A stretch of 64,000 bases of DNA from Psilocybe cubensis (Eukaryota). Where the stretch lies: the NCBI GenBank assembly GCA_017499595.2, contig CM039010.1, positions 992,001 to 1,056,000 on the forward strand, given 5' to 3'. Positions 1-52,967 of the stretch are shown here, piece after piece (position 1 is the first letter of the stretch; every line of letters starts with the position of its first letter). The translations under genes and the position numbers were made by a program. The notes under the pieces are model-generated. The model worked only from the letters and a program-made list of their open reading frames with translations, did not search any database and had not been told where the DNA came from.

Positions 1-1586
1 CCACCGGACACATCCTGCCGGAAAAAATACCAGCCGCTTGTCGCTGAGGACAATCGACTTGTCTTTATCAATCAAGAAATTTCTGATTGATAGGTGGATG
101 GAAACCATCCTTCCAACCCGTCAGCCGCGAGGAAGGCTTTGCTGCTCTGACGTCGGCAACTGATCCGATGCCTCGATCAGAGCGGCAGTGTTCGCAGATA
201 CGATGGTATCCTGCGAACCTTTACCAGCTCGTTCAAAGGCAACGAGTGGTAGATTATGCTGCAACCACCTATCATGAGTCTCTTGGGGAGATTTTGTTAG
301 GCAGGAGCCTTGGAACAATCTTTCGACACCTGCGTGGCAGAAAGGTTAGACATATATATCTTCAGAGGAAAGGGCGGCTGTACGTACTTAAAAGCCAAAT
401 CCAGGTTCATACGCTTATACGAATCGCCTGAAGAAATGTGAATAATCAGTTGGAATCGACTTGATGTTTGCAGTACATAATTGACTTACTTACATTCTAA
501 CAAATGGGCCGGCTAAGGTAATTGTCCTCGCCGGCCAAGTACAGAAAACTCAGTCTTGCAGACGGATCAGAGGTCCGTCTCGCAAGCTTTGCCAATCAGC
601 GATGTGGTTATCGCTGACCGACAGTGTCAACTGAATGCATGAAGCATCCAGGACCTTTACCACTTCAATTCTCCGTGTTCCGGCATGACTGAGAGTGGTA
701 GGTGTCGTTGTCCTTTCCCGCGGGCGAGGGGGATAGGACACGATGGATGTGGAGAAGCGACCTGTACCCAGAGTATTATAATTATGGAAAAATATGATGA
801 AAGACAAAAAACGTACCGCATACCAGCAGATTCATCGGGCAGGCTTAGAGAAAGTTTAAGAACCTGAAAAGCCAGCTCAGCACTGCACGACAGAGAAGAT
901 ATCAACACTCACCATTTGCTAGACCACAAGGATCCCTTCCGCTCCCCTTTTGATTAGGGGGAGTGGCTTTGCCGTCTGGCCACACTATGCGGGAGGTCAG
1001 AGTGGTGTGGCGTTGGTTGACAGAAGCCATATCAGAGTGTAAACTCCTCAGGTTTCGTCGTAAGCCCAGGAGCTGCGTCAAAGCCCCACACCGGTCCTGG
1101 GATACGCACCTTCACTGTGGCATTGACGATGTCTTCGGAAGATGTTGACAGAACCAACAACCCAGAGCAAGGACGACGATCACCCAGACATTGAAAGCAT
1201 ATCCGAGACAGAAAGGTCGAAAACACAAGCACGCACTACGATTCTTCAATGTGGCTTTATGGCTCTTTTCGATGGCTCAATGAGCTCTTCACTTTGGCTC
1301 TGTGGCTCTTTTCAATTGGTGGCTCCGTGGCTCTTTTCGATGTGGTCCTGTGGCTCTTTTGATTGTGGCATATCGCTCTTTTCGATTTGAAGAGGAAGAG
1401 AACGTAGCAAGATATCGTATCCCAGCAGAACTGTGAACCCGGGTAAGTATGGATGTAACAAAACATTGCGAATGCGGGACATACCTAGAACCCAGCATAG
1501 CACAACCTCGCACAAAGAGACACTGGCAGCAGAAGTATAATAAATGCCACAAAGAATTTCCCTTACATAGAACTCAGTGATGCGAA

Positions 1587-24364: not shown

Positions 24365-24451
24365 GGCAGTTGTATTTAAACTTTTTCATGCAATAAACCT
24401 CCGCCATCAAATTCTTAATTTCAAATTCCCAGCCTCGGTCTTGACTTTGTA

Positions 24452-24554
24452 CAGTTGAACCCCTCTTAACCCATACCTCTCGGTGGACGGCTCAGGGTAT
24501 GGGTTACCAGGGGTTATGGGTTTTGAGAGGTATGGGTTAAGAGGGGTTCAACTG
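24452..24554. mobile_element. 103-bp MITE (Tc1/mariner/pogo-type) with 30-bp perfect TIRs and TA target-site duplication
   Basis: TA|CAGTTGAACCCCTCTTAACCCATACCTCTC (24452-24481) ... GAGAGGTATGGGTTAAGAGGGGTTCAACTG (24525-24554)|TA. Confidence 0.9.
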
Positions 24555-34409: not shown

Positions 34410-34826
34410 GTGAATGGTTTGTGTATATTTTCCTGCTGTGCTGTTGTATATCCTATGCATTGGGAATATGTATTTCGATTTTAATAGAGTAGAATTTACT
34501 AATTTGAACCCAGGAATGTTAGGCAAGATATTCAAGATAAAGCGAGGTGCGAAAGCACATACATAGTCTGGTAGAGAAGCGCATTTTTGGAAAATTGGAA
34601 TCTTTTTCAAGTCACGCAAAGTTCAAGGACAGCCACAAATAAACAAAACCAAAGAACCAATTTTTTGGTCTCTTCGACTCTCTTGCCATCTCTTGTTTGA
34701 GTCGTAGTACGAGGACATCTTTTGGCTCATTCCTAACGCGTTCACTTAGCAAGGTGCGCTCTTTGATATATGTAGGTCAGAACTGGCTTGATTTTAAGGC
34801 ATATTTTTCTTTACAGTAGGGATCCA

Positions 34827-36548
34827 ATGGATAACAACCTTGAACTCGTCTTCAAAGATGCGAGCACTATAGAAGACATCATTATGCGGAACCAGGGCCA
34901 GCTCGCTGCTGCAAAAGAGGCTACTAGACTCTGCCGGGAGAAACACTACCGACTCAGTTACCATCTCAATAAAGCCAGATCAGTTCTATCATCTCTCCCC
35001 AATGAAGTTATATCACAGATATTCCTGTTTATGTGTGCACCAGAGACCTCGGTGTGGGAATTTTTGTGTTTTCCACCAACTCAGTTCTTGATAGGAAGTG
35101 TTTGTAAAGAATGGCGACAAATTGCGTGGTCCACGCCGCATCTATGGGACAATATTGAAATCCAGTTAGTCCGAAAATCTTGCGAAACCCAGATAGAACT
35201 CCTCGAGGAATGGATTGAACGAAGTGGGAACCTGCCATTGGACATTCACATATACTCGCATGGACTTTTTGAAGCACCGTGGGAAGCACCGCCAGAGGCG
35301 TTTACCAAAATTGCGGAGGTCTATGCTCGTTGGAGAAGCTATCACGGACACGCTGTTCCAGGGCTTGCCGCTGAGTTGAAGCGTATCAATGCAACTTGCT
35401 TCCCAATGTTGGAGACTTTGAGTCTATCGGAACCAATCCATGCCCCACCTGTAAACAATCCTCCGGACACGACATACCAGTGGAACTTCTTATCGGCGCC
35501 TGCTCTACACAATGTTTTAATTGAAGGACCGTTAAAAGGGGTTGATATAGCCATCAATTGGGGGTCCCTAACGTGTCTGACCGCAGATTTTGTCTTGCGA
35601 CAGTCACCGCACAATTCAAAGAAGCAGGGATATGTTTCATTCCATGTGCTGACTTCTTGTACATTGTTGACCAAACTCGAACTCAATCTCAAGGACTCCA
35701 GGGTCTCATCAACGCAGCAGCCTCATCCTTGTCGCTTTCCTCATCTAAAAATACTAAAGATTGAAGGATCGGCGGATATTGTCGAGTATGTTCTAGAATG
35801 GCTCACAACACCTAGTTTGAATGAACTCCAAATTCGTTTGGAAAGCATCGACATAACTAGTGAGTGGGAGGCCTCTCTGATAGACTTAACCACCCGGTCG
35901 TCTTGCAAAATCAGGTCATTGTCCGTTATTCACTCGCACAAACATCCTGAAAGCGATGATGAATTTGTGGATATGCTTCGCATACTTTCGCGCGATCATC
36001 CAATCGACTCACTGGAGATTCGCTCTTATGGTTTCACAATGTCAGACAATATGGTCCTGCTCCTCACGATGCAGCGCGATAGTGAAGAACAACAGGACCA
36101 CCTTCCATTGCTGAAGAATTTCACCTACGCAGGAGACATCTCATTTTCACTAAGGAAATACGCAGACATGATAAACTCCAGGTTGATTTACGAGGCACAG
36201 AAAAGCAAGGAGAATAAAATACACAGAAGACGCGGAACGAAAAAGGAACCAGGTGACGAATACGCAGAGCCAGATAAAGAGGATGAAAATAGCGATGGAG
36301 CGGACCAATTGGACAACTCGTCTGCATCAACCTCCAACTTGAACCCGCTTAATTTCAGTGTCTCTTACGAGAACCTTTCTTGGTTCGGGAAACAACGCCC
36401 ATGCATATTACAATCCTTTTACAAGGAGCTGGAACGGGCTTCGACAAGGGGGAAGAAATTTGACTTCAAGTATGGACAGTGTTGGGGAGAGAATTGCGAT
36501 GATATCTCCAGTGAGAAAGTATATAGTTCATGGCATATGGACTATTAA
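34827..36548 (+). CDS. Intronless F-box-like protein, paralog of 51201-52967
   Basis: LPNEVISQIF...IGSVCKEWRQIAWSTPHLW and LLEEWIERSGNLPL. Confidence 0.9.
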   Translation: MDNNLELVFKDASTIEDIIMRNQGQLAAAKEATRLCREKHYRLSYHLNKARSVLSSLPNEVISQIFLFMCAPETSVWEFLCFPPTQFLIGSVCKEWRQIAWSTPHLWDNIEIQLVRKSCETQIELLEEWIERSGNLPLDIHIYSHGLFEAPWEAPPEAFTKIAEVYARWRSYHGHAVPGLAAELKRINATCFPMLETLSLSEPIHAPPVNNPPDTTYQWNFLSAPALHNVLIEGPLKGVDIAINWGSLTCLTADFVLRQSPHNSKKQGYVSFHVLTSCTLLTKLELNLKDSRVSSTQQPHPCRFPHLKILKIEGSADIVEYVLEWLTTPSLNELQIRLESIDITSEWEASLIDLTTRSSCKIRSLSVIHSHKHPESDDEFVDMLRILSRDHPIDSLEIRSYGFTMSDNMVLLLTMQRDSEEQQDHLPLLKNFTYAGDISFSLRKYADMINSRLIYEAQKSKENKIHRRRGTKKEPGDEYAEPDKEDENSDGADQLDNSSASTSNLNPLNFSVSYENLSWFGKQRPCILQSFYKELERASTRGKKFDFKYGQCWGENCDDISSEKVYSSWHMDY

Positions 36549-36699: not shown

Positions 36700-39090
36700 T
36701 TTACAGCAAAATATACAAGCTACAATAACGCTACTACGACTGACCTTACCTCAAGTGTGAACGCATGAAGAAAGAATGCGAAGACACGAACAAGTCAGTA
36801 TGAAGAGAATGAGGGTGCTCTTGGCCAGATTCAATCCACCCAAAGGTAAGATCGAATCTGTGAAGCCCATACGCCACGTCAAGGCGGCACCCCATCGTAT
36901 GGGAAAAAAAGTGTACCCGACGATTGTCGAGTACGTGTGAAAGACTTTACTACCCGATAGCGGAGTAGTAGGGCCAGCAGGACGCTGTGAGGCGTCTGCT
37001 GGCTATCGTGAAGAAATGAAAGAGCAGAAAAAAATGAGAAAGGAATCCCACCGAGAGGTGGGCTTTGTCGCCCCGGCAGATGGTGCGCGGGTACGACAGT
37101 GCGCGTCAATTGAGCGAGACGCGGTGGTGACTTACCTCGAAATTGTTTGTCGACGAGTCCTCCGCCTACCCTCGGAGACTCGACGGCGGATGGCAGGGTT
37201 GCGATTGAGGTTGTTGGAGTGGGTAGGGTAGTGGACTGCGATCGAGACGTTTATCGTTGGCATAGAAGTAGAGCACGCACCCTGAAAAAAGAATCAGCAT
37301 CAAACTCGACCGAAACAAGATAGAAAAGCACGTACATATGTTTTATGTTTTTTCTTAGTTTTTAAACATATTTTATTTCCTACACAAAGCAAGCGATAGT
37401 GAGCAATCAATGGCGCGAATGAGTAAACGATCAAAACTTACATTTATTTTACAGGACCGGCAGGGTGTCTTTGGTTTGCCCTGCCGGCCACAACCCCCTT
37501 CCCGCCCACCGACGGCATTATATCGTCGGATGGGCTCCGTCGGAATAGGGTTCATCGTTGACCCCCATGCCGACGGTGTCCCCGGGTGATTGACTTTGGG
37601 GTACATTACCGCGCGTGTGCAACCGTGTTGTGGCTACACTGTGGGCACCGGTAGGGAGCTCGTTTATTAGACCGAGCAACGTCCTGCAAACAATTCAAAC
37701 GTAAGTATGTGCGCGACGAGTGAGGACAATCGACTCACTTCTGTTTTATAGGACCGGCGGGGGTCTTGCTTCGTGCCCGCCGGCCACTACCCCCTTCCCG
37801 CCCACCGACGGCATGATATCGTCGGATGGGCTCCGTCGGGATAGGGTTCATCGTTGACCCCCCATGCCGACGGTGTCCCCGGGTGATTGACTTTGGGGTA
37901 CATTACCGCGCGTGTGCAACCGTGTTGTGGCTACACTGTGGGCACCGGTAGGGAGCTCGTTTATTAGACCGAGCAACGTCCTATATAGACAATTCAAATA
38001 TAAGTATGTGCGCGACGAGTGAGGATAATCGACTTACTTCTGTTTTATAGGACCGGCGGGGTGTCTTTGGTTGTCCCCGCCGGCCACGACCCCCTTCCCG
38101 CCCACCGACGGCATGATATCGTCGGATGGGCTCCGTCAGGACAGGGTTCATCGTTGACCCCCATCCCGACGGTGTCCCCGGGTGATTGACTTTGGGGTAC
38201 GTTACCGCGCATGTGCAACCGGTAGGGAGCTCGTTGGTTAGATCGAGCGACGTCCTATGAAGACAATTAAACCGTAAGTATATGTGCGAAAGGTGGGATA
38301 CTGGATAGAGGAAGACTTACTGTACACGGCCGGCGGGGGTCTTGCTTCGTCCCCGCCGGCTGTGGTCCCCTCATCCCACTCACCCACCGACGGCGCCATA
38401 TCGTCGTATGGGCTCCATCGGGACAGGGCTCATCGCTGAACCCTATACCGACGGTGGGTCCCCGGGTGTTCGGGGATGTTGCCGCACATATGTAACCATG
38501 TTGTGGTTACATATGTGGGCTCTACTCGTTTATTAGACCGAGCGACATCCTGTAGTAGAGAAGTCAAATGTAAGTATGTGTGTGTGGAAAGTGGGGGAAT
38601 GCGATACTCACTATTTTTTTTCACTGCATGTGCAGTTATAACCTGCGCGGTGAAGAGCGAGTTAGTCTAGGTAATCGAGAGAGCGGGAAGGTGCTTACCT
38701 TTATTCTAATGAAAGCAAGCGGGTGTCCTGATATATCGTGCAACAGCCGTGCTCGCTGGTGGGTACCTGTACACGATAGTGGTAAGCAAGCGGTCGGACG
38801 ATAAGATGAAAAGAATACTCGCCTGTAAATATCACACAAAGCTGTAATCTGCATGCCAGTGCCCGCGTAAGTTGCTGCGCATGGAGACACAGAGACGACG
38901 ACGGCCTACCTAGTTTCAATCGACAGCGAGCGGCGTGGTAGTTGAGTAGTAGTCGTCTTGTAACGATTAAATCGACGGACTGGCTATGGAGCCAGCCCGT
39001 GATGCAGTCGCTACCTCATCGTCCTACTGCCCGGGGTTGACCAGGCAGGAGGAGGAAGAGTGGGGGGCATTTCGTTGAGGGAAAAAATCG
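36700..39090 (-). ncRNA. Candidate spliced, structured long non-coding RNA, copy L (4 hairpin modules); ends approximate
   Basis: Mirror of the 48585-50650 unit. TATAAA on the minus strand at 39107-39112, conserved splice signals, no long ORF. Confidence 0.55.
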
Positions 39091-40505
39091 AGCAAACTAG
39101 GGGCCCTTTATACCCCTCGCCTCCTGCCTGCCAGTGCCACCGTGCCACCGTGCCACAGCCCATCAATTCTTTTCCCAAGGCTACACACAATCATCAAGGG
39201 TCTCTCCGACGGCACGCGTTCTAATTCTAGATTTCCGACATGACGCCAGCCAATCAGAGTGGGCCAAACAACAGCACTTGCCTTCTTTAGCAATAAAAAA
39301 ACGGGTCAGGCAGCCAATCCAACTATCCAAGGAAATGGTATTACCCTCTTTAGGACGCCAATTTTCCCGCCGGAGACGTGTAGACGGGCCTCCGGGTGGC
39401 TTCGATGAGTGCCTATCGATCAGATAACGCGTTTTCGTTGTCTTTTCCTCGTTGGCTTTAGAAGAAAGGGGTTAGATGGTGCTCACGGGGTGCTGATAAT
39501 GACTCACCTTCGATCTTTGGACGTGTAACATCGAGGCAGGTTAAAAGCCTCCATGAAAACGTGCTGGGAAATGTCCAGGCAATTAGTCTTCCTTAGGCAG
39601 GATTTTGCATGACGTCCGACTTCCTGGGGCATTCTTTCTAAATGCCAGGTTGGTGCGTACGATGCGCTGGCCCCCGAATGCCTTTTACAGCACCAATACG
39701 CCCCGGCAGAACATTAACGACTCGGACCAGCGCACCGAGTCAAATCTTCCTGCCAGTGGACGAGCACCACCGTTTTCCTTCGATCCTCATCGCCTGGATA
39801 TCATCGTCATTGTATTGATTATTTCTTGATTCCGTCCTAGACCTTATCGAACAATTGTAGAGCAAAGTGAAGTGATTAAAAAAGATTATGCATATGGGTT
39901 TGTCGTGTGAGTTGGCAGACGGCGGGAGCGCAATTATTGTGCGCAAAGCTTACGTCATTTAAATTAGACCCCGACGCGTCCGAGTCCTGACGCGTCGCGT
40001 CGTAATTAATTAGTTCGTAACTGTATTGCAGCTTGTCTATTCCCACCGCTTATTCAAACCTCCACCAAACGCGACAAGGACATTTTCAACAGAACAAGAA
40101 CGAGTAGGTAACACCTGCACGATTAAAAAAAAAAATCAACCTCATAGCCTAAATCCACTGTATGTCAATCACTGCGAGCTCTTCCCTTCGATCCATCATC
40201 CCAGAGCGCTCTTTATCCGACGGAAATTCGTGCCATTTCATGCCAGTGCGAGCCACCCAGTCACCAGTGCCCACGCCGTGGGGAACTCCGAGGACGCAAC
40301 GTCGTCGTTGACGCGGAGCTGCGTCTTGAACGCATTTTATAGCTCGCGATGCTACAATACGAGCCTTTCTGAATCGGCTTCAGCGAGCTGGCCCCTGAGT
40401 AGCACTCTGCTCTGCTCGACCAAGGCCTTGTCCTTGTCACCAGATCTAGACCCGCCTAATGCGCTCAGGAATCATGGTGTGCGTCTGGCTAGTATAAAGG
40501 TGTCG
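36811..40505. repeat. Left arm of large inverted repeat (partner ~46828-50560)
   Basis: The reverse complement of 36811-~39990 matches ~47690-50560 closely; for example ORFs 39134-39427(+) and 48243-48536(-) are almost identical. 40000-40505 matches 46828-47396 more weakly. Confidence 0.97.
37450..38620. repeat. Four tandem ~280-300 bp modules (exon+intron units)
   Basis: GGACCGGC/GGCCGGC-starting units at ~37454, 37751, 38050 and 38328, each containing CCCACCGACGGC...CGTCG...GGGTTCATCG and ending in GTAAGTA...ACT(C/T)AC. Confidence 0.95.
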
Positions 40506-40590: not shown

Positions 40591-42663
40591 AGAGTCACCC
40601 AATAATGTGTTCATCGTGTTTGTTTAAACGCGTCTTCTGTGCAGTGTGCAGTGTGTGTAACAAATGCATCACCAATCAGCGGCGTGCGTGACGGGTTATA
40701 AGGACAATTGAAGTGTTAGATTTTGACCTTTTGTCTTCAGTAAGACTTTCAAGTTCCAGGCTGCAGGCTGTTTACGATGAGTTTACAGGTATAACTCGTT
40801 GACAGTCGTCGTAGGGTTATCGTTTCTACAAAGAATTTAGTCGGGACTTGATGGAGGGGATCTGTTAGAATCTGGAATCCTTTACTTACCAGCTAATTAA
40901 ACAAAACGAGTCTCGGAGAATGGGTGAATCATGGACGTGAGCGAGCACGCGTCGAATTTTGCGGGGATAATTGATTTACATTTACCCCGCTGGCTTGGGG
41001 CTTGGCTATGAGAAAGCTCTGTTTTTGTGCCGTCGATTCAGGGCTGGAAGGAAACGAGTTATGTCTGGAAACGAGTTATGTCTGGGAAAGTCTGGAAAAG
41101 AGTCAAGGCGTAAATGTTGCACTGTTATTGTTAACACTGGCGGCTGGCGGCTGGCGGCTGGCGGCACGGGGCGACTCTGATGTTGTACGCTAATCGTTAG
41201 GACTGTAGAAATCCAGATTCCATTGACAGTGCCGGTTCTAAAGCGTTTTTGGTGCTGTCGACTCTAGACTCTCGAGCAGGAGGGGGTTAGGTTGAGTGAT
41301 TTGGTTGTACGATTGTACTGAGAGTGCTAAGTAGTGCTCGTATATGCGTGCGACGTGCGACGTGTGTGTAACAGTGTGATGGATGAGTTGCATGGGGCAA
41401 TGTATATTGTATCTAGCTTGTCTTGTCTTGTCAATGCCCAATGCCCGATGCGGTGATGGATGGATGTGGTAATGTTTCGTCAGTATATACTACACTTACA
41501 CTTACACTTCCACTTAGATATATGCATATGCGTCTATGCGTCTACGGCGAATCAGGAATCCGAAAGGACAGACTGAATAGATGTCGAAAATCGGGAAATG
41601 TGGTGAAACCGTGAAAGAGATATCACAGCGAGAGTTGGTGATGCCGCAGTAAAGTACGCAGCAAGTGCATTAGCGCAGGGTGCTGCGATAAAGTCGACAT
41701 TTAACCAGGGATGGGATGGGGTGGGCAGGCTGGACGTGTAACGTGTGGTCGTTTACGTTCGCTGCGCGTGATAAGGTTAGAATTAGAAGCATGGATGTGC
41801 TGCGGTTGAGTTATGTAGTTTGTTGGCAGTGGAGGGCTATCCGAGTCTACAATACTCAGAATATTCAACAACAACAACAGTGGTACACACGAGATGAAGA
41901 AACTATAGGAGAACCAGAGCCATGCACGCGTGGTCATGCGGAAACTATGAAAGTGAGGAATCCAAGGGGGTTCAGGGCGGACGCAAAGTCCGGATCTGTG
42001 CTGCTTTTGCAGATCGCATCAATTTGACGTCTGCGGGATATGCAGATTGTAGTGTCACTTGACGCTGAACAGCAGGACGGATGTACAGTCGATAATTTGA
42101 AAGGAGGAGTGCAGTGACTGACGGCTTCCGGCTTTCTCGACAAGACAAGACATGTATTTGTCATCACGCGCGTAAAACCCCTTTGATGTGTCTACCCCCA
42201 AGGTTTCCGCAGAGCTCCGCGTAGATGGATGGCTTCTTGGAGACGATCATTGTGATAAGGACAGAATTCGGAGAAGACTAAAAAGTGAAAATTTTCTGCT
42301 GTAGAAAGTAAGTGCGAAAAAGCCGGTTGCTAGATGATGGGCGTTGAACTATGATCCAGAAGAGCAATGGAATAGCAGGACTAAAGAGGGATATGGCGGG
42401 AGAGAGATGTCTTGCGGGATGGAATGGATGAGGACAAGTTTCATAGATTTGGTGGAGACAAGGGAAGGGTTAAACAGAAAGTTCGCACGCCATGCGTGCC
42501 GAGTTACGTGAAAGTCGGTGACTAGTAAGCTTAATTTTGAAATGCAAGCAAGGCGACCGACCCTCACCCTCTGCCCTCTCTCAACCCAACCACACCAACG
42601 GACACGCGTCTTCAGCTCACCCGAGACGCAGCGTCCTTTGTACGAAGCCCGTAGTGATTAGTC

Positions 42664-45597
42664 ATGCCGTTCCCCTCTCCTCTGCCATCGCCCATGGCGC
42701 TCTCAAAGTCCAACAAGTCCTCCTCCATCTTCAACAAGAAACGCTCTTCCAACGCAACCGGTGCCCTCCCCGCTTCCGCAGCCTCCTACCTCTCCGCCCT
42801 CTCCGAGGCAGACGCCTCTGCCCGCAAACGCAACGTCTCGCCCACATCCACCCCCGCACTGTCCCTCTCCTCCTCCATCACCTCCTCCTCCGAAGACACC
42901 ATCCTCCACGAACCCGAATACCTCCGCGACCCCCTCCTCGCATCAAACAAAGACGGGCTGCTCCTCCCCGCCCGCCCCCCCACCTCGGAGCAGGTCTTCA
43001 ACACCGTCCATACAGAATTCGGCCACTGTGCTGATGAGCGTTACCGCACGACAAGCCAGCACAAGCTCGGCACGCCCCTTGCGCCGCATGTTGAACAGGA
43101 CCCGCCGTATTACATTCTGCTCTCGACGTATATCAGCTACCTCATCCTCATTGTGCTGGGTCACGTCAGGGACTTTATTGGCAAGCGGTTGAACCCTAAA
43201 CGGTATAAGCATTTGATGCCTGGTGGTGTGAGTGTCTCTATTTTTGCTTCTTCTTTTTTTTCGTTTCCTTGCTCGTTGCCCTTGGTGTTGGTTCATCGTT
43301 TGAGGAGTCTGCTCTCTTGTCCATCACTTTTCATTTTTTTCGTGATGATTGTGGCATACGTCTTGTATACGGAGGCATAAGGCGCGGTCACTACGGCGTT
43401 TTGGTTAAGAGGTTTCTGCTATTTTTGCGTTTCTTCTTTTCTTTTTTTGGAGATGATTCGCACAGGGGCATCTGTCTGTGCTGGTTGATTTGTACGCACG
43501 TCGGTCACCCCTAGGCAATGTCTGGTCAAGTTCATACTTCACCGTTGTCCTTGCTCCCGCCATGATTCTTTTCTATGCGGGGTCGTTGCTTTTATACATC
43601 TCCAGAGTCTTGGTGGGACCAGATTCTTTTTTCGCGACTCCCAGCCGGCGCAGGACGAGCTTCGCGTATAACTTACGTGTGATACAATCATTCATTGCGC
43701 GCCTTCTTTCTATTTTTTGTCTTTTATATCGGGAGGGGGCGCGTCGGTCGGGATTTATACGTGTTTATGCGCATGCATCCACTGAAACCCCCGGCGTCGT
43801 GTCTTTTTTATGCGTCTTCTTTTTTTTCGTACTTCGTTTGTCTGTGCTTCTCGTGGTATATGCGGAGTCGAGGGTTGTCAATGTATGCACTGAGCCCGGC
43901 AGCAGCAATATGGCGGGTTCAGACCCCAGCCGCAGTTTGTCGTCTGGCGCACATGCAACGTACAGGGGCATCGCCAACTCCTTACCCATCAATCACACTT
44001 TTCATTCCAAAATTTCATATTTGCTCATACACATTTTCATCATTTAGGGCTACGCACCCCTCAACTCCGACTTTGACTCGTTCTACACCCGCCGGCTCAA
44101 AACGCGCATGGACGAGTGCTTCTCGCAGCCCGTGACAGGCGTCGCAGGCCGCACCATCCTCCTCCTCGACCGCTACTCGCCAGACTACAACCACACGCAG
44201 ATCCTCACCGGCACACGCACGCGCGCACTCAACATCTCATCGTACAACTACCTCGGCTTCGCCCAAGCGCGCGGGCCCTGTGCCGATGCGGTGGAAGAGT
44301 CCATCAAGCGCTATGGCATCTCGTCGCTTGGCGCGCGGTTGGATGCGGGTACGACGGATTTGCATGTGGTTAGTGAGGCGCTTGTGGCGAAGTTTGTGGG
44401 TATGGAGGATGCGCTGATCAGCTCGATGGGGTTCGCGACGAACTCGACGTATATACCGGCGCTGGTGGGCAAGGGGTGTTTGGTTATATCGGATGAGTTT
44501 AATCATGCGTCGATTAGGTTTGGAGTGAGGATTAGTGGTGCGCATGTGCGGATGTTTAGGCATAATGATATGAGGGCGCTCGAGGCGCTGTTGAAGGAGG
44601 TTATTAGTCAGGGACAGCCCAAGACGCATCGCCCGTGGAAGAAGATTTTGGTTATTGTTGAGGGGCTTTATAGTATGGAGGGAACGTTGGTGAATTTACC
44701 GGCTATTATGGAGTTGAAGAAGAAGTACAAGGTGTGTATTCCCGTTTTACCCTTTATCATTTTTGACTGATAATTTTTCACAAGTTCTACCTATACGTCG
44801 ACGAAGCCCATTCAATCGGAGCACTCGGACCACACGGACGCGGCGTCGCAGACTACTTTGGCGTCAACCCGCGGGAAATCGATCTTCTCATGGGCACATT
44901 CACGAAATCGTTCGGGGCGGCGGGAGGGTATATTGCGGGGAGTAAGGCGTTGATTGATGTGTTGAGGGTGCATGGGCATTCGGGGGCGTATGCGGAGGCG
45001 ATGGCGCCGCCTGTGTTGACGCAGGTTGTTTCGAGTATGGCGAGTATTATGGGGTTGCAGGTCGCTGCTGGTGATACGACGACGACGGGGAATGGGAATG
45101 GGATTGTGGAAGAACAGGTGTATCATCATCCCGGACCTGCACCGATTAATTCGATCCCGAGCTGGGTGCATCTCCCACCTGCACTAGCTTCCGGCCAAGA
45201 AGGATCATCCCGGCTGCGTCGTCTCGCATTCAACGCTCGATACCTCCACAACGGGCTAATCAAACTGGGCTTCATAACATACGGCCACCCCTCCTCACCC
45301 ATCGTGCCTCTCCTCTTATTCAACCCAGGAAAGATGAATATGTTTCATCGACTGATGAAGGAGAGGAAGACGCCGATTGTGGTGGTTGTGGTGGCGTACC
45401 CTGCTACGCCGCTTGTGACGAGTCGGGTGAGGTTTTGTGTGAGTGCGGCGCATACGAAGGAGGATGTGGATTGTGTGCTCAAGGCGTGTGTGGAGGTGGG
45501 GGATGTGTTGGATTTGAGGCATGGGATTCCGGTTAGGGAGAGGTGGAGTTTGGAGGAGGTGGTTGAGAGGGCGGTTGAGTTGGGGACTATGGAGTAG
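42664..45597 (+). CDS. LCB2: Serine palmitoyltransferase catalytic subunit (long-chain base biosynthesis protein 2)
   Basis: GYAPLNSDFDSFYTRRLK, LNISSYNYLGFA, SDEFNHASI, EGLYSMEG, YVDEAHSIGA and the PLP-lysine motif GTFTKSFG. Introns 43228-44047 and 44732-44784. Confidence 0.95.
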
Positions 45598-46039
45598 GTG
45601 GGTGGGTGGGGAGAGGAGAGGGTGGCGGTGGGTGGGTGGAGGGGGGGAGAGGGGTGGAGGGGGATTTTTTTAAAATCTTATTTTATCTCTCTTTACCTCT
45701 GGATTCTTTTTGACATTCTTCTTCGCGCTGCGCTTTCTTCTGGAGTTTTTTTTTTTATTTGTTGGATTTTTTTTTACTTGTTTCTTCTTCTTCTTTGGTT
45801 TTAGATAAATGCCTTGTGCTAACCTTTTCCTTTCCTTTTCCTCTCGCCGTTGCCCTCGCCGTTGCCCTCTCCTCGCGCCCACTCTCGCCCACTCTCGCAC
45901 CCAACCTTTTCATGATCTCGCTGTTGTTATCCGTACGCGTAACTCGTAATCATTTTACTTGTCTTGTCTCATCTCTACCTCTATCCGCTACCCGCTACCT
46001 GTATCCTCTAAACGCGCACCCCTATTCCCTTCCTCCTCC

Positions 46040-46175
46040 TTTCCGATTCAATCCTCCTCTCCTCTTTTCCGGTTCGATCCTCTTCTCCTTTCCGATTCGA
46101 TTCGATACTCCTTTCATCCTTTCCGATTCGATTCAATCCTCCTCTCCTCCTTTCCGATTCGATCCTCAATCTTCT
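46040..46175. repeat. Degenerate minisatellite of TTCCGATTC(G/A)ATCCTC-like units
   Basis: About 5 copies of TTTCCG(A/G)TTC(G/A)AT separated by CT-rich spacers. Confidence 0.8.
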
Positions 46176-46624
46176 CCTCTCCTCTCCCACTCCAACGCCA
46201 TTCCATCTAACACCAAACGCTTAACATAACGCCTAACATAACGCTTAACGCCTTTCAATATCACGATCACCCGAAATTTTTTTCTTTACTTTTTTATAGT
46301 ATTTTACTTTGTTGTTACGAGCAGACCAGAACACCGATATAATTTTGTTTTGTGTTGTTTGAGCTTTTGTTTGAGCTTTTGATTGAGTTTTTGTTTGATC
46401 TTTGGTTTGAGCTTGGGGGAAAGTGAGGAGGGTGGAAGGTGGAGGTGAGGTTCTATGAGGTTTTTGGTGGGTTTGTGAACTTCTCTCGAGTCTCCGTCTC
46501 CGTCTCTGCGCGTAAATGAGCGGGGAGGTAGAGTACCGACTCTGGAACTCGTTCATGTTCATGTTCATTTCAGTGATAAGATGGATTTTGGTGGTGAATG
46601 GTATGGATAGAGTCCTACTCGCCG

Positions 46625-46669
46625 AAAAAAAGAAGAAAAGAAAAGGAAAGAAAAGAAAAGAAAAGAAAA
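46625..46669. repeat. (AAAAG)n microsatellite
   Basis: AAGAAAAGAAAAGGAAAGAAAAGAAAAGAAAAGAAAA. Confidence 0.9.
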
Positions 46670-46827
46670 CTTGACGCGCAGTCTTCGTTACGCCACTCGA
46701 CAGTGCTTTATTAGAAACCGGCTTAGACTTTAAATTGTGTTACAACTTACAACTTAAAACTTACAACTTCGAGGTAGAGGTAAAATCATTTTGATTTTTA
46801 TATTCGTCCCGGTGTGATTGGGATTGT

Positions 46828-49800
46828 GTGGATATCTTTATAGTTTGTACTAGCTGGATGCACATCAGGGTTCATGAGCGTGTTAGTGGGTCTAGATCTG
46901 GTGATAAGGACAAGGACAAGGACAAGGCCTTGATTGAGTGGTGTGAAGTGCTACCCAGGGGCCAGCTCGCTGTCAATGAAGCTGATGTTGATTCAGAGAA
47001 GATTGCATGGAGCATTGCGAGCGGTAAAATGTGCTCATGATCACGAGGCAGCTCCGAGCCAACGACGTTGTGTACTCGGAGTACCCACAGGACGTGGGTG
47101 GCTCGCAGGCAATGACACGAATTTTGCGTCGGATTTGTAAGAGCCTGGCTAGTATAGGCTGGGATCGAAGCAAGATCGAAGAGGAGTGATTGACGTGGGT
47201 TTTTGGAGGTTGATTAATGATTTTTTTTTGATTTTTTTGATTTTTTGATATTTTGATTTTGATTGTGTAGGTGTGTATACTCGTTTTTGTTCTGTTGGAA
47301 ATGTCCTTGTCCTTGTCCTTCGGTGTAGTTTTGAACAAATGACTCGGACGGGGATAGAGAAGCTTCAATACAGTTGATAAATTGCGACGCGACGCGAGGC
47401 CTCAGGCCTCAGGGCGCGGTCACGCCCAGGCTATCCATGGGCTATGATATATCACGTAGTAAGCTGCGGGCATGCGATTTATTGCTTTTCACTTCTTTTT
47501 CTATAGGCTTTAGAGCTATGCGATAAGGGCTGTATGAGGTGATCAAGGTGACGATCGTTGGCGTGGGCGTGCCATCCTCAGAGTCGGTAATATTGTTCCG
47601 GAGCATAGCATAGGTACTCAATATGGCATTCACGGTCCAGGGCATCGTGCACCGTGACATCCAAGTGCAGTTAAATAAAACGCGACGCGGCGCGTCAGGA
47701 CGCGTCCGGGTTTATTAATATATGACGTAAGCTTCGTGAGCAATCATTTTGCTCCCGGCGCCATCTGACTCACGCGACAAGAACTACAACACCCATAGTC
47801 CTTTTTATCCCTTCATTTTTCTCCGGTCTAGGACGGAATCAAGAAGTGATCAATGCGATGATATCCAGGCGATAAGGATCGAAGGGAAACGGTGGTGCTC
47901 GTCCACTGGCAGGAAGGTTTGACTCGGTGCGCTGGTCCGAGTCGTTGACGTGCTGCCGGAGCGTATTGGTCCTGTAAAAGGCATTCGGGGGCCAGCGCAT
48001 CGTACGCACCAACCTGGCATTTAAAAAGAATGCCGCAGGAAGTCGGACGTCATGTAAAAGCCTGCCTAAGGGGGAGTAATTGCCTGAAAAAATTCCCAGC
48101 ACGTTTTCATGGATGCTTTTAACCTGCCTACCTGCCTCGATGTTGCACGTCCAAAGATCGAAGGTGAGTCATTATCAGCACCCCGTGAGCACCATCTAAC
48201 CCCTTTCTTCTAAAGCCAACGAGAAAAGACAAAGAAAACGCGTTATCTGATCGATAGGCACTCATCGAAGCCACCCGGAGGCCCGTCTACACGTCTCCGG
48301 CGGGAAAATTCGCGTCCTAAAGAGGGTAATACCATTTCCTTGGATAGTTGGATTGGCTGTCTGACCCGTTTTTTTATTGCTAAAGAAGGCAAGTGCTGTT
48401 GTTTGGGCCACTCTGATTGGCTGGCGTCATGTCGGAAATCTAGAATTAGAACGCGTGCCGTCGGAGAGACCCTTGATGATTGTGTGTAGCCTTGGGAAAA
48501 GAATTGATGGGCTGTGGCACGGTGGCACGGTGGCACTGGCAGGCAGGAGGCGAGGGGTATAAAGGGCCCCCCGTTTGCTCGATTTTTTCCCTCAACGAAA
48601 TGCCCCCCACTCTTCCTCCTCCTGCCTGGTCAACCCCGGGCAGTAGGACGATGAGGTAGCGACTGCATCACGGGCTGGCTCCCCAGCCAGTCCGTCGATT
48701 TAATCGTTACGAGACGACTACTACTCAACCACCACCCCGCTCGCTGTCGATTGAAACTAGGTAGGCCGTCGTCGTCTCTGCTCCTCCATGCGCAGCCACT
48801 TACGCGGGCTTTGGCATGCAGATTATAGCATTGTGTGATATTTACAGGCGAGTATCCAGTTAGTTCTATCGTCCGACTGCTTGCTTACCACCATCGTGTA
48901 CAGGTACCCACCAGCGAGCATAGCTGCTGCACGATAGTTCAGGACACCCGCTTGCTTTCATTAGAATAAAGGTAAGCACCTTCCCGCTCTCTCGATTACC
49001 TAGACTAACTCGCTCTTCACCGCGCAGGTTATAACTGCACATGCAGTGAAAAAAAATAGTGAGTATCGCATTCCCCCACTTTCCACACACACATACTTAC
49101 ATTTGACTTCTCTACTACAGGATGTCGCTCGGTCTAATAAACGAGTAGAGCCCACATGTGTAACCACAACATGGTTACACATGTGCGGCAACATCCCCGA
49201 ACACCCGGGGACCCACCGTCGGTATAGGGTTCAGCGATGAGCCCTGTCCCGATGGAGCCCATACGACGATATGGCGCCGTCGGTGGGTGAGTGGGATGAG
49301 GGGACCACAGCCGGCGGGGACGAAGCAAGACCCCCGCCGGCCGTGTACAGTAAGTCTTTCTCTATCCAGTATCCCACCTTTCGCACATATACTTATGGTT
49401 TAATTGTCTTCATAGGACGTCGCTCGATCTAACCAACGAGCTCCCTACCGGTTGCACATGCGCGGTAACGTACCTCAAAGTCAATCACCCGGGGACACCG
49501 TCGGGATGGGGGACAACGATGAACCCTATCCCGACGGAGCCCATCCGACGATATCATGCCGTCGGTGGGCGGGAAGGGGGTAGTGGCCGGCGGGCACGAA
49601 GCAAGACCCCCGCCGGTCCTATAAAACAGAAGTGAGTCGATTATCCTCACTTTTCGCTCACATACTTATGTTTGAATTGTTTGCAGGACGTTGCTCGGTC
49701 TAATAAACGAGCTCCCTACCGGTGCCCACAGTGTAGCCACAACATGGTTGCACACGCGCGGTAATGTACCCCAAAGTCAATCACCCGGGGACACCGTCGG

Positions 49801-50560
49801 GATGGGGGTCAACGATGAACCCTATTCCGACGGAGCTCATCCGACGATATAATGCCGTCGGTGGGCGGGAAGGGGGTTGTGGCCGGCAGGGCAAACCAAA
49901 GACACCCTGCCGGTCCTGTAGAATAAATGTAAGTTTTGACTTTTTACTCATTCGCGCCATCGACTGCTCACTATCGCTTGCTTTGTGTAGGAAATAAAAT
50001 ATGTTTAAAAATTAAGAAGAAAAAAAAACATATGTACGTGCTTGCCTATCTTGTTTTGATCGAGTTTGATGCTGATTCTTTTTTCAGGGTGCGTGCTCTA
50101 CTTCTATGCCAACGATAAACGTCTCGATCGCAGTCCACTACCCTACCCACTCCAACAACTTCAATCTCGACCCTGCCATCCGCCGTCGAGTCTCCGAGGG
50201 TAGGCGGAGGACTCGTCTACAAACAATTTCGAGGTAAGTCACCACCGCGTCTTGTTCAATTGACGCGCACTGTCGTACCCGCGCACCGTCTGCCGGGGCG
50301 ACAAAGCCCACCTCTCGGTGGGATTCTTTTTTCATTTTTTTGCTGTTCTTTTATTTCTTCACAATAGCCAGCAGACGCTTCACCGCGTCTTGCTGGCCCT
50401 ACTACTCCGCTATCGGGTAGTAAAGAATTTCTCCACGTACTCGACAATCGTCGGGTACAATTTTTTTCCCATACGATGGGGTGCCGCCTTGACGTGGCGT
50501 ATGGGCTTCACAGATTCGATTTTCCCTTTGGGTGATTGAACCTGGCCAAGAGCACCCCTC
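46828..50560. repeat. Right arm of large inverted repeat (partner 36811-40505)
   Basis: See left arm. It contains an extra ~285-bp insert (47397-47679) and one module fewer. Confidence 0.97.
48350..48563 (+). promoter_or_regulatory. Putative Pol II promoter: two inverted CCAAT boxes, 3x GTGGCAC, TATA box
   Basis: GATTGGCTG at ~48351 and ~48415; GTGGCAC at 48514, 48522 and 48530; TATAAA at 48558-48563. All are mirrored in the left arm. Confidence 0.6.
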
Positions 50561-50650
50561 TTTCTGTTCTATTGCTTTCATCGTCCCTTCGCTTGAGCTT
50601 GAAATCAGGTAGTATCAAGGTAAGCCAGCTATACTATTGCTACATGTACT
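48585..50650 (+). ncRNA. Candidate spliced, structured long non-coding RNA, copy R (3 hairpin modules); ends approximate
   Basis: Predicted introns 48848-48903 (GC-AG), 48972-49027, 49059-49120, 49350-49415, 49632-49686, 49929-49990, 50034-50087 and 50234-50367. Exon 49121-49349 has stops in all three frames. Exons fold into GC-rich hairpins. Confidence 0.6.
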
Positions 50651-51200
50651 TCGCCTTGTAAAGCATGTAATATAAATATCATAAATGACATATATATTTC
50701 ATACGCTATTGCACCCTCGTACAGAGTGACAGTTCCATTCGGATTCCGGACAAATATTAAAGACCAACGCGTTGAATTTGACGCCAGCCTATCGCTCAGA
50801 ATGTGACACAGCGCATTGTCTGCGTCCAAAAATTTTATGGCCCGGGTGCGGAGGTAGGGACAGATGTACACACCCAAAATATTGCCTTGATTGAGCTTGT
50901 CGATAAACCTTATTGTTACTAGTTAAACATTTCGTCGTCTGAGTAGCGTGATGCTCCGCGAGATGTGAGGGCACAGAGGCCGTGCAACAGGTGCTCATTC
51001 TCAGAGGTAGTTAGATTAGCTTGGCAATCAGCCACAGAGTAAACATTAGCAAATAAATAAATTCCCGATTTCCAGGTGAGTCACCTGTAACGCGACTAAG
51101 GTTTATCTACTTTGCGTATTCCTCCAAGGTGTGTTCTTTGATATGAGTGTCAAATATATCTCAATGTCTATGCATACTTGTCCGTCATGGTAGGTGTACA

Positions 51201-52967
51201 ATGTATACCGACCTCGATCTTGACTTCGAACACGGCACTATCGAAGAAGATATTGTGAAAAACCAGTCGCAGCTGGCTGCCGCAGAGGAAGCTGTCAGAC
51301 GATGTCGGAAGAGGCAATACCAACTCAGACGCGATCTTAATACCGCAAGATCAGTTCTATCCTCTCTACCCAAGGAAGTTATGTCCCAGATATTCCTGTT
51401 TATGTGCTCGCTGGCAGACAGTCCTTTTGGCCTTTGGATGTTTAAACCGGATCAATTCTTAATTGGAAGCGTGTGTAAAGAATGGCGAGAAATAGCATGG
51501 TCCACGCCGCGTCTCTGGAACATCGTTTACATTTGGTTTCGCGAAAAATCTTGGAAAACCCAAATAGAACTCCTCGAGGAATGGATCGAACGAAGTGGGA
51601 ACCTGCCATTAGACATCTACATTCACTCCATGCCAAAATCAGGCACGCCCTGGGAACCACCCACGGAAACTTTCACCAGAGTTACAGAGGTCTGCGCTCG
51701 TTGGAGAAGTTTTGATGGAAGTGCTGCTCCGGGGTTGGCCGTTGCATTGAAGCGTACCAACGCAACTCGCTTCCCAATGTTGGAGACTCTAACCCTATCG
51801 GAATCAATCCATGCCCCACCTGTGAACAATCCTCCGGACACGACATACCTGTGGAACTTCTTACCGGCGCCTGCTCTACGCAATGTTTCGATTAAAACAC
51901 CGTTATTGGGGGCCAATCTAACCATAAATTGGGAGTCCCTAACGTGTTTGAAAGCAGCCTTTATCTTGCAACAACCGGACGACCCTGCACAACGAAAATA
52001 TATTCCATTTGATGTTCTCAGTTCGTGTAAACAGTTGACCGAACTCGAACTTGATCTCATGGGGTCTGGGGTCTCGTCGACGCAGCAAATTCATCATTGT
52101 CACTTTCCTCATCTCAAAGTGCTAAAGATAAACGGATTGGCAGTCATTGTTGATTGCGTTCTAGGATGGCTCAAAACACCCAGTTTGAATGAGCTCGAAA
52201 TCTGTTTGGAAAGTGTCGACACAACTATTCAGTGGGAGGAGTCCCTGATAGATTTGACCGAACGGTCGTCTTGCAAAATTAGTTCCCTGTCCATCAAACT
52301 CCCGAAAAATGAACTCGATAGCGATGCTGATATCGTAGAAATGCTTCGCACACTTTCGCGTAATCATCCAATCGACTCACTGGAAATTTGCTCTTCGATT
52401 GATTGTGGTTTGACACTATCTAACGCCATGGTCTTCCTCCTTACGATGAAACGCCAATACGATGATGAAAAACGGAAGGAGCACTTGCCGTTGCTGAAGA
52501 ACTTTTACTATAACGGAGACGTCTCACTTTCCTCATGGGAATATGCACGCATGGTAAACTCCAGATTGACGTATGAAGCACGGAAACGCAAGGCGCACAG
52601 AATGGGCAGAAAACACGGAATGAACGTTTCCGTTCTTGGAGAAAGTACCAAAGATGAAAATGGAAACAATCAAGTCGGCGACGAAGTCGATGAATGTGGA
52701 GATAAAGACGAAATCGATCAGGATGAAGGAGACGATGGAGAGCAGTTGGACAACTCATCAGTCTCCAATCCACTTACTTTCAAGATACATTACCGCAATC
52801 GCAATTGGTTCCAGGCGCAACATCCAAACTCATTACAATCCTTCTACAGTGAGTTGGAACGATTTTCCACGCGAGGCAACCGTTTTGTCTTCAAGTACTT
52901 AAATTATTATGACGATGACGAAAATTACTTCTACTATCGACGATATGAGACAGGGGACGAGGACTAA
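51201..52967 (+). CDS. Intronless F-box-like protein, paralog of 34827-36548
   Basis: LPKEVMSQIF...IGSVCKEWREIAWSTPRLW and LLEEWIERSGNLPL; colinear with the 34827 protein. Confidence 0.9.
   Translation: MYTDLDLDFEHGTIEEDIVKNQSQLAAAEEAVRRCRKRQYQLRRDLNTARSVLSSLPKEVMSQIFLFMCSLADSPFGLWMFKPDQFLIGSVCKEWREIAWSTPRLWNIVYIWFREKSWKTQIELLEEWIERSGNLPLDIYIHSMPKSGTPWEPPTETFTRVTEVCARWRSFDGSAAPGLAVALKRTNATRFPMLETLTLSESIHAPPVNNPPDTTYLWNFLPAPALRNVSIKTPLLGANLTINWESLTCLKAAFILQQPDDPAQRKYIPFDVLSSCKQLTELELDLMGSGVSSTQQIHHCHFPHLKVLKINGLAVIVDCVLGWLKTPSLNELEICLESVDTTIQWEESLIDLTERSSCKISSLSIKLPKNELDSDADIVEMLRTLSRNHPIDSLEICSSIDCGLTLSNAMVFLLTMKRQYDDEKRKEHLPLLKNFYYNGDVSLSSWEYARMVNSRLTYEARKRKAHRMGRKHGMNVSVLGESTKDENGNNQVGDEVDECGDKDEIDQDEGDDGEQLDNSSVSNPLTFKIHYRNRNWFQAQHPNSLQSFYSELERFSTRGNRFVFKYLNYYDDDENYFYYRRYETGDED

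Follow-up and report, generated by a model that had tools for sequence, protein, structure and literature searches.

What kind of gene combines promoter-like elements and a series of splice signals with exons that no reading frame crosses? A locus in a 64,000-nt stretch of the Psilocybe cubensis genome (GCA_017499595.2, CM039010.1 positions 992,001–1,056,000, forward strand; hereafter the window) raises this question. An initial annotation had proposed that it encodes a highly structured, Pol II-transcribed and spliced non-coding RNA. Our analyses support this RNA as spliced, non-coding and structured, and the locus very likely is a genuine structured non-coding RNA gene; the Pol II part is only inferred, from a TATA box and spliceosomal introns. 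The gene is present as copy A (~48.56–50.72 kb, plus strand), with three module exons, and as copy B (~36750–39447, minus strand), an inverted copy of the whole gene with four. As an overall explanation we favour, by a modest margin, a structured lncRNA gene in two inverted copies that, in our preferred mechanism, would act as scaffold or decoy. We read this structured lncRNA family as new, its function being inferred only and its conservation beyond the species group unassessed.

The putative promoter of copy A (48350..48563, plus strand), whose function is inferred, contains two CCAAT boxes upstream of a TATAAA at 48558–48563, as initially claimed, with the precision that both boxes are inverted (ATTGG). 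Across the 367 nt upstream of the gene (48223–48589), just 6 positions distinguish the two copies. Exon 1 (48617..48760; all copy A features lie on the plus strand) starts at the first base under an RNA-like contig, its true 5′ end being unplaced, and its region (48600–48760) folds with z = −5.5. Intron 1 (48761..48821, 61 nt, GTAGGC..CAG) is followed by three small exons (48822–48847, 26 nt; 48904–48971, 68 nt; 49028–49058, 31 nt) alternating with intron 2 (48848–48903, 56 nt, with a GCGAGT donor and thus a GC-AG border), intron 3 (48972–49027, 56 nt, GTAAGC donor) and intron 4 (49059–49120, 62 nt, GTGAGT donor). Then come the module exons S1 (49121..49349, 229 nt), S2 (49416..49631, 216 nt) and S3 (49687..49928, 242 nt), separated by intron 5 (49350..49415, 66 nt, GTAAGT..ATAG) and intron 6 (49632..49686, 55 nt, GTGAGT donor). 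Downstream, intron 7 (49929–49990, 62 nt, GTAAGT donor), an A-rich mini-exon (49991–50033, 43 nt), intron 8 (50034–50087, 54 nt, GTACGT donor), exon 9 (50088–50233, fold z = −0.1), intron 9 (50234–50367, 134 nt, GTAAGT donor) and exon 10 (50368–50619, fold z = −4.0) precede intron 10 (50620..50724, 105 nt), whose removal joins exon 10 to the region 5′ of an F-box-like ORF (51147–52967). The homology between the two copies stops near 50534, within exon 10. The initial annotation had listed eight intron-like intervals, seven of them of 54–66 nt; all eight held at their places and with these sizes, and the list was incomplete, missing 48761–48821 and ending before 50620–50724.

Splicing is shown by contigs of the run X10, which contain GT..AG joints at five or more introns: 48758>48820 (cut +2; intron 1), 49631>49687 (intron 6), 49928>49991 (intron 7), 50033>50088 (intron 8) and 50617>50723 (cut +2; intron 10), the last resting on only 23 letters at its shorter side. 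A second run, X14, shares 49928>49991 and 50033>50088, the joints on either side of the mini-exon, and the DNA-type runs X5 and X9 have none of these joints. One X10 contig (record 6, 488 nt) consists of parts matching 48617–48758 and 49121–49339 with 127 nt between them, equal to 2 nt plus 26 + 68 + 31 nt; this exact fit to exons 2–4 suggests that introns 2–4 were also spliced out, on the evidence of length only. Introns 5 and 9 are predicted only, intron 5 from its splice signals. X10 and X14 come from one study and are only guessed to be RNA, no run being annotated as such; we treated them as RNA because their contigs skip introns, including 43227>44048 in the neighbouring aminotransferase gene, which lies between the copies, for both runs and 44726>44780 in the same gene for X14. 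The joints were placed on copy A only; the contigs are unable to separate it from copy B. Gaps in X10 and X14 cover (for example 47418–48320) are uninformative on where the RNA starts, and run depths were left out of any expression or copy-number ranking. A regex count of intron-like intervals gave six on the plus strand and three on the minus strand, for a shuffle mean of 1.5 and a shuffle maximum of 6. This is weak, so that intron support rests on the RNA-like contigs and not on motif counts.

The spliced product has no conserved ORF, in agreement with the initial claim that no continuous frame crosses the exons. Exon 49121–49349, already described as closed in three frames, has 1, 2 and 5 stops in its three sense frames and is closed in the three antisense frames as well, and five of the seven module exons are closed in all six. 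A protein-coding gene or a precursor of repeated peptides was rejected on the stops, a frameshift between the copies, flat codon phases and the absence of Pfam families at threshold. The remaining coding alternative, that the locus makes one or several small peptides from a 99-aa ORF in exons 9–10 or from the modules, is all but excluded. In its favour, the spliced RNA carries ATG ORFs of 60–99 aa, and S2 and B2 each have one sense frame free of stops. Against it, the longest of these ORFs, the 99-aa one of copy A, is frameshifted in copy B to 83 aa with a different C-terminus. The modules share no common frame, which is broken by their lengths (229, 216/217 and 242) and by 1-nt indels, and they show no 3-base periodicity (25/18/18 variable columns per codon phase). 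More than 15 upstream ATGs occur in the spliced RNA, many of them before every ORF. Pfam returned no family for five ORF pieces from copies A and B, and the ORF of a third locus described below (locus C) gave a single, far sub-threshold match (E = 0.059).

If not a protein, what do these exons encode? The core of the gene is its tandem array of module exons, three in A and four in B, 216–242 nt long, with a period of ~296 nt and 78–98% identity between different units (99% between the first unit of A and that of B). The duplicated unit consists of an exon plus an intron, so that module borders coincide with exon borders. Read 5′ to 3′, each module has a hairpin on its 5′ side, a long hairpin that varies, and a junction bearing the two conserved hairpins P5 and P6. 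Then come a separate GC-rich hairpin P7, which is an uninterrupted stem of 10–11 bp without a pocket, and a tail rich in A/U, which extends to the donor site. Hairpin P3, absent from S2, is a near-perfect palindrome. The first bases of the module pair in a helix, and module helices touch both splice sites. S1, S2 and S3 fold with z = −7.9, −4.1 and −4.6, none of 200 shuffles being as stable for any of the three. The consensus of the seven modules has 63 pairs and 412 of 425 cells paired (96.9%), compared with only 32–46% when partners are slid by 1–3 columns; seven variant pair states are unpaired, mainly at helix ends of S1 and B1. The fold is shown to be strand-biased: the antisense strand pairs at only 366 of 425 cells (86.1%) because of 50 G-U cells. 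A 200-nt MFE scan of both strands over the whole window found the sense strand more stable at A, B and C and flagged only these loci (including 51–250, near C) and an unrelated palindrome at ~24.45 kb. Four consensus pairs are changed on both sides, and none of 500 shuffles matches the observed covariation score, with the caveat that related sequences may beat shuffles without any structure. A covariance model of the module (R1) matches S1, S2 and S3 with 222, 240 and 281 bits and B1–B4 with 221–284 bits; in the 64-kb window it finds only these seven and a relative, C1, in locus C. The structure of the modules as RNA is thus strongly supported by the fold z-scores and the consensus, as the description of the locus as highly structured had claimed.

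Copy B had been placed at ~36700–39320 on the minus strand with intact splice signals. This held, with the span corrected to ~36750–39447: a TATAAA lies near 39112, all donors and acceptors are retained, and the module exons are B1 (38321–38549), B2 (38038–38254), B3 (37739–37980) and B4 (37442–37683), all on the minus strand. The inverted-repeat arms give 94–97% identity between the copies and blastn gives 95–96%, and this divergence is shown to be uneven, lower in the modules (S1 and S3, 6/471 differences, 1.3%) than in the introns (35/551, 6.4%; Fisher p = 2e-5), with 30/653 in the other exons. S3 and B4 have four differences, which on reading the alignment affect a loop, a bulge, the tail and one U-G/C-G pair. 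S1 and B1 differ at just two positions, which pair with each other and have changed from G-C to A-U. The DNA around this double change is a near-perfect palindrome, and templated repair from one arm to the other could explain the change without selection at the RNA level. Introns 3 and 4 show no differences between A and B, and patchy gene conversion could account for part of the low module divergence. The comparison is confined to the one 64-kb window, and the seven modules are paralogues that exchange sequence, and so represent few independent events.

More distant evidence comes from locus C (494..761, minus strand), which is exon-like, 268 nt long and bounded by ..GGGTACAG| and |GTAAGT, its transcription being inferred at most. 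Its 3′ half shares the module layout, it folds with z = −7.3, and R1 matches it with 12.8 bits (E = 0.009 for a search of the whole window). The hairpin motif GGCCGGC..GCCGGYC occurs only in locus C and in five of the seven modules, for 0.00 chance matches expected; S1 and B1 read AGCCGGC and fall outside the match. MAFFT misaligned C1 with the modules, and C1 was compared through independent folds, in which its hairpin positions agree with theirs. P6 of C1 has 11 pairs in the same geometry, in 10 of which both partners are different from those of S1 and S2, and among the six outer pairs of its P5 one is changed on both sides, three are changed to G-U or U-G and two are unchanged. We read locus C as holding a much-diverged relative of the modules in a third exon flanked by introns, which suggests a small family. 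A second module within it (~50–329, minus strand) was unsupported, its best match scoring 3.7 bits on the wrong strand. At 45–59 (minus strand) there is a 15-nt match to a module intron (E = 1.7).

These data bear on whether the locus has any function at all. In the null view, a young duplication or an exonised palindromic repeat, possibly derived from a transposon, is transcribed and spliced by chance, its apparent structure reflecting DNA palindromes and common ancestry. We consider this very unlikely. It is favoured by the location of all copies inside one window, the 95–97% likeness of A and B, the likelihood of gene conversion, the palindromic P3, and the absence of homologues from scans of metagenome and viral contigs (no module-motif match in either). 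Against it, the strand bias arising from the 50 G-U cells would be unexpected for DNA palindromes, the modules diverge about five times less than the introns, and the hairpins of C1 retain their geometry although nearly all their stem letters differ. Concerning a transposon origin, matches of the model in the window are limited to the seven modules and C1, and no terminal inverted repeats, or other terminal repeats, were noticed at the unit ends on reading the sequence, without comparison to a transposon library.

A structured RNA gene could still belong to a known class. The initial annotation had recognised no known fungal ncRNA class, which held, and had called for an Rfam search, which gave nothing above noise: no match in the whole window at gathering thresholds; only sub-threshold noise (mir-483, mir-4922, BjrC80 and similar) in permissive searches of 48200–50800, 1–1000 and one module; and, up to E = 10, a single spurious miRNA in 48200–50800. 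ARAGORN detected no tRNA genes in this analysis. A scan with a second motif returned 16 metagenome loci (L001–L016), which were dismissed as chance matches, none fitting R1 at E ≤ 1. Like snoRNA host genes, the locus makes a multi-intron, ORF-less spliced transcript. Such hosts carry their structured payload in introns and have poorly conserved exons (PMC7719101), whereas here the exons hold the structure and the introns are more diverged; the hypothesis was rejected, with no snoRNA in Rfam and introns of 54–66 nt (one of 134 nt) too short for one. An exon-encoded H/ACA RNA was also rejected: in S1 and S2 the exon does end close to an ACA, but P7 lacks a pocket, S3 has AUA instead, and the only H/ACA match scores 12.9 bits (E = 5.7) against a gathering score of 50. 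Retrozymes and satellite hammerheads are tandem-repeat ribozyme RNAs, and the locus resembles them in its head-to-tail array with a period of ~300 nt and a structured RNA unit, but its units are bordered by GT..AG splice sites of the spliceosomal type, which take part in exon-exon joints. Together with the absence of any ribozyme family up to E = 10, this led us to reject a self-cleaving repeat, a test that cannot exclude a new ribozyme class. Telomerase RNA and Sm-site RNA were dropped informally, a CUAACC loop occurring only in S2 and B2 and the array being tandem.

How might such an RNA work? In our reading, the gene is probably transcribed by Pol II from the TATA promoter, and its transcript is spliced at roughly ten short introns with GT-AG or GC-AG borders. 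Each exon of the array is one self-contained RNA folding module, and selection acts on how the transcribed strand folds as RNA. In the mechanism we propose, the spliced RNA would serve as a scaffold or a decoy that binds multivalently: every module would present a protein or RNA partner with an identical binding surface, and module number would set the valency. We advance this mechanism tentatively, as more doubtful than probable: function is inferred, and there are no binding data and no expression by condition. A reading of the alignment revealed no binding motif of a known RNA-binding protein common to all units. NORAD, the Xist A-repeat and roX are repeat-module lncRNAs. The locus shares with them a Pol II-type (here inferred), spliced and ORF-less transcript with tandem RNA units that suggest multivalent binding. 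It differs in being fungal and in its units, every one of which spans an entire exon of ~230 nt, folds into several helices and comes with an intron of its own. The fold has covariation and strand-specific G-U pairs, and no partner is identified.

A bolder reading, which we regard as possible, is that the modules make up a new RNA domain family of mushroom-type fungi, its members autonomous and delimited by introns. Each exon would copy one sensor or binding domain, which the RNA would use either to titrate a factor in the cell or to sense a signal and set its own exon inclusion or circularisation. Tandem structured aptamers exist, and fungal TPP riboswitches control splicing (cf. PMC5882874). 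The modules are similarly compact multi-helix domains beside splice sites, with the domain repeated, but they match no Rfam riboswitch, and no ligand or regulated coding gene is known. If this reading were true, the diverged member at 494–761 (minus strand) would point to a genome with several such genes, and the locus would be a eukaryotic lncRNA with a covariation-backed fold. Rivas et al. 2017 reportedly lacked evidence (covariation support) for conserved structure in lncRNAs. Four features are unusual here: exons that are discrete folding modules, G-U pairs that mark the transcribed strand, compensatory changes between copies, and a distant paralogue that keeps the geometry with different letters. 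Such a gene is undescribed in the literature searched. One fungal structured-RNA screen covered Ascomycota only and left out Basidiomycota (PMC8216456), and the text of another (PMC5640933) contains no mention of Basidiomycota, Agaricomycetes, tandem or lncRNA. Their motifs are, like ours, candidate conserved fungal RNA structures, but tandem module exons are absent from their sections bearing on this. As neither screen covered basidiomycetes, such an RNA class could have escaped notice. The two copies, with three and four modules, also provide a natural handle on deletion and dosage.

Two further alternatives retain a functional RNA. In the first, a precursor model that we judge unlikely, the folded exons themselves would be the products, stable small RNAs or single-exon circular RNAs released by back-splicing or from exon-skipping lariats, with the linear spliced RNA as a by-product. 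It is supported by the correspondence of each module to exactly one exon whose first bases lie within a helix, by flanking introns that are near-identical repeats and would favour alternative pairing of splice sites, and by the compactness and great stability of the modules. Against it, the joints observed are forward exon-exon joints and none of them runs backwards, although contigs of tandem repeats are poor evidence for or against back-splicing. Few single-exon circular RNAs of such a size are known to arise from short fungal introns.

The second alternative to the scaffold or decoy is that the transcript, or its synthesis, regulates neighbouring genes in cis, either as a long leader or upstream transcript of the F-box-like gene or through riboswitch- or thermometer-like sensors that decide exon inclusion. 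This also seems unlikely. Next to copy B the arrangement is not kept, the nearest F-box-like gene lying on the other strand in convergent orientation; the spliced RNA has many upstream ATGs; and there is no Rfam riboswitch match, no ligand and no alternative isoform seen. In its favour, module helices reach both splice sites, the joint 50617>50723 heads toward ORF 51147–52967, and another X10 contig (record 7) covers 50759–51000. As this joint reaches the region upstream of the F-box-like ORF, the RNA of copy A could partly be the leader of that gene.

Our analyses show that a spliced, ORF-less RNA is produced from repeated exon modules that fold strand-specifically and are more constrained than introns. 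Copy A of its gene lies on the + strand (~48.56-50.72 kb), and the mirrored copy B on the - strand. Most of the gene model proposed in the initial annotation held: all eight intron-like intervals were recovered with the reported donors and branch-like motifs, seven measure 54-66 nt, the TATAAA lies at 48558-48563, and stop codons close the exon 49121-49349 in every sense frame (and in every antisense frame too). The list of introns held only in part, an additional one (48761-48821) having been missed, and the end of the unit had to be corrected, with another intron (50620-50724) located beyond it. The mirrored copy was also confirmed with corrected limits (~36750-39447), and it contains one module more than copy A. 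Inside each copy, a ~296-nt unit is repeated head to tail, with three units in A (module exons S1 49121-49349, S2 49416-49631 and S3 49687-49928) and four in B (B1 38321-38549, B2 38038-38254, B3 37739-37980 and B4 37442-37683). The two copies differ at six positions in the 367 nt upstream; transcription by Pol II from a TATA promoter is inferred, not shown.

No sequencing run containing this stretch is recorded as RNA, and X10 and X14, two runs of the same study, were only guessed to be so. They nevertheless behave as RNA, since their contigs (on 42000-51000) skip 43227>44048, and in X14 also 44726>44780, at GT..AG borders of an aminotransferase gene, skips that are absent from the DNA-type runs X5 and X9. 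In copy A, GT..AG joints occur at 48758>48820, 49631>49687 and 50617>50723 in X10, and at 49928>49991 and 50033>50088 in both X10 and X14; none of these five was found in X5 or X9. In addition, a 488-nt X10 contig matches 48617-48758 and then 49121-49339 with 127 nt between, the length predicted (2 + 26 + 68 + 31 nt) for excision of introns 1-4, the GC-AG intron 48848-48903 among them. The claim of splicing is thus supported. The orientation of the joints agrees with the + strand of copy A; the contig data themselves carry no information on strand, ends or level and do not separate copy A from copy B. Introns 49350-49415 and 50234-50367 are only predicted. The joint 50617>50723, directed towards an F-box-like gene, gives the idea that the RNA acts in cis, as a leader or sensor, its chief support; what weighs most against this explanation, which we consider unlikely, is that the arrangement at copy B is convergent.

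The absence of a continuous ORF, also claimed initially, was supported, and we regard the gene as non-coding. The longest ATG-initiated ORF in the spliced product of copy A, as assembled from coordinates, encodes 99 aa and is preceded by many upstream ATGs; a frameshift turns it into 83 aa with a different C-terminus in copy B. In five of the seven modules, all six frames are interrupted by stops; S2 and B2 alone keep one open sense frame each. The variable columns of the seven-module alignment are spread over the codon phases as 25/18/18, and the module lengths (229, 216/217 and 242 nt) together with 1-nt indels imply that no reading frame is shared. None of six ORF pieces had a Pfam match at threshold (best E = 0.059, 13.9 bits versus a cut-off of 27). 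In view of this evidence, production of small peptides is a very unlikely alternative.

The copy A modules fold far more stably than expected (z = -7.9 for S1, -4.1 for S2 and -4.6 for S3, with 0/200 shuffles as stable in each case). Exons 1 (z = -5.5) and 10 (z = -4.0) are structured as well, and exon 9 shows no excess structure (z = -0.1). The consensus of the seven-module alignment contains 63 pairs in 8 helices, with standard pairs in 412 of 425 cells (96.9%), versus 32-46% once partners are slid by 1-3 columns. Two-sided changes occur at four consensus pairs, and no shuffle out of 500 reached the observed covariation score or percentage paired. These statistics must be read with caution, as the sequences are related and themselves served to derive the structure; seven variant pair states, chiefly at helix ends of S1/B1, are unpaired and count against the fold. 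G-U/U-G pairs occupy 50 cells, and the opposite strand would pair at only 366/425 cells (86.1%); in a 200-nt scan, the transcribed strand was the more stably folded at A, B and locus C, an exon-like stretch at 494-761 (-). Between the clear counterparts S1/B1 and S3/B4, 6 of 471 positions differ, versus 35/551 in introns (Fisher p = 2e-5); other exons differ at 30/653. This strand bias and the lower divergence of modules than of introns argue for selection on the RNA rather than for DNA palindromes. That the gene is a functionless exonised repeat, as opposed to this reading, appears unlikely. S1 and B1 differ at two positions only, which are the two sides of one pair, changed from G-C to A-U (rough chance estimate 8e-4); as this hairpin is a near-perfect palindrome, however, templated DNA repair could also have caused the change. 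By our own reading of the alignment, S3 and B4 differ at four positions, located in a loop, in a bulge, in the 3' tail and in a U-G/C-G pair. Introns 3 and 4 are identical between copies, which points to patchy gene conversion. The comparative evidence comprises eight paralogous modules of a single 64-kb window, together with the occurrence of the locus in several strains or labels (10 sequencing runs, 4 studies).

The eighth module belongs to locus C. Besides the seven modules, a covariance model built from them retrieved one weak full-length match, at 494-660 (-) (12.8 bits, E = 0.009 over the window), inside a putative exon of 268 nt (494-761, z = -7.3) bordered by ..GGGTACAG| and |GTAAGT. 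In independent folds, three 3' hairpins lie at 4-37, 39-75 and from 92 in locus C, and at 3-42, 44-75 and from 91 in the modules; the segment that starts at the conserved CACYGUCGG and ends at the donor measures 133 nt in locus C versus 136-137 nt in the modules. The motif GGCCGGC..GCCGGYC of P7, the most 3' hairpin, occurs in the whole window only in locus C and five modules (0.00 expected by chance), S1 and B1 carrying AGCCGGC at its position. Hairpin P6 keeps its 6 + 5 pairs and 1-nt bulge, as well as its 9-nt loop if the innermost A-U pair is open, with 10 of 11 pairs changed on both sides relative to S1 and S2, and 9 of 11 relative to S3. The exon is surrounded by short intervals resembling introns (49-66 nt) and by a hairpin mini-exon of 40 nt similar to the 43-nt one after the last module of copy A; a second module further downstream was not supported. 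Judged from sequence alone, locus C resembles another ORF-poor gene with several introns and a structured exon. Within 1-1000 (-), the intervals measure 49, 55, 66 and 58 nt and the mini-exon lies at 388-427; further hairpins continue to the left window edge, where the gene leaves the window. Upstream of locus C in its presumed direction of transcription, a repeat resembling GAAAAGAGCCACNGNGCCA (minus strand) occurs five times within 1243-1386 at a spacing of ~22-43 nt; these copies are possibly repeated promoter elements.

The initial statement that no known ncRNA class is recognizable was supported: Rfam gave no match in the 64-kb window at gathering scores, and only noise in permissive searches. 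No tRNA genes were found. A snoRNA host gene was ruled out (introns too short, no snoRNA inside), as was a repeat of a known ribozyme type (unit borders are splice sites). With respect to a transposon origin, a model search of the window alone, without genome or transposon library, found only the modules and locus C. Metagenome and viral pattern scans for the module yielded nothing real. The gene is likely a structured repeat-module lncRNA. No such gene was described in the literature searched (supplements excluded). Of two fungal structure screens, the larger was restricted to Ascomycota (PMC8216456), and the other does not mention basidiomycetes (PMC5640933). With this gene, a new RNA family may have been observed for the first time. 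As to function, we favor, tentatively and without considering it probable, that the spliced RNA would act as a multivalent scaffold or decoy, as its modules are autonomous, repeated, variable in number (3 versus 4) and separated by A-rich single-stranded linkers. Animal repeat-module lncRNAs have this same layout; the proposal is made without binding data. A precursor releasing stable or circular RNAs from these exons is an unlikely rival to the scaffold or decoy.

The two copies are inverted duplicates (48223-50534 (+) and 36837-39447 (-); 94-97% identity, 95-96% by blastn), and weaker inverted similarity extends inwards of both arms to ~40.4 and ~46.9 kb. The duplication (36837-40438 / 46915-50534) exceeds the RNA gene, its identity dropping inwards from 97% to 76-84%. 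Its arms bracket a single aminotransferase class I/II gene in unique DNA (~42.6-45.6 kb; Pfam PF00155, E = 4e-20 and 2e-20), which recombination between them might invert. Outside the copies, the F-box-like genes 34776-36548 and 51147-52967 (Pfam PF12937) are ~80% alike in direct orientation, whereas the adjacent RNA genes are 96% identical and inverted, implying different duplication histories or ongoing homogenization of the RNA copies. The F-box-like cluster as a whole spans 30476-36548 and 51147-52967. In the aminotransferase gene, the 820 nt skipped by RNA-like contigs (43228-44047, GT..AG) far exceed the ~55-nt introns elsewhere, and 43261-43334 is a replaced stretch in X5 and X9. At 46033-46182, a TCCGATTCGATCC-rich tandem repeat (imperfect, 23-54 nt) differs in length between strains in the DNA runs. 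The strongest fold outlier of the 200-nt scan, unrelated to the modules, is a perfect 34-nt inverted repeat at 24448-24558, with a 43-nt spacer in which a ~17-nt repeat of GGTATGGGTT type occurs three times; we interpret this inverted repeat tentatively as either a small foldback element or a palindrome with a regulatory role.
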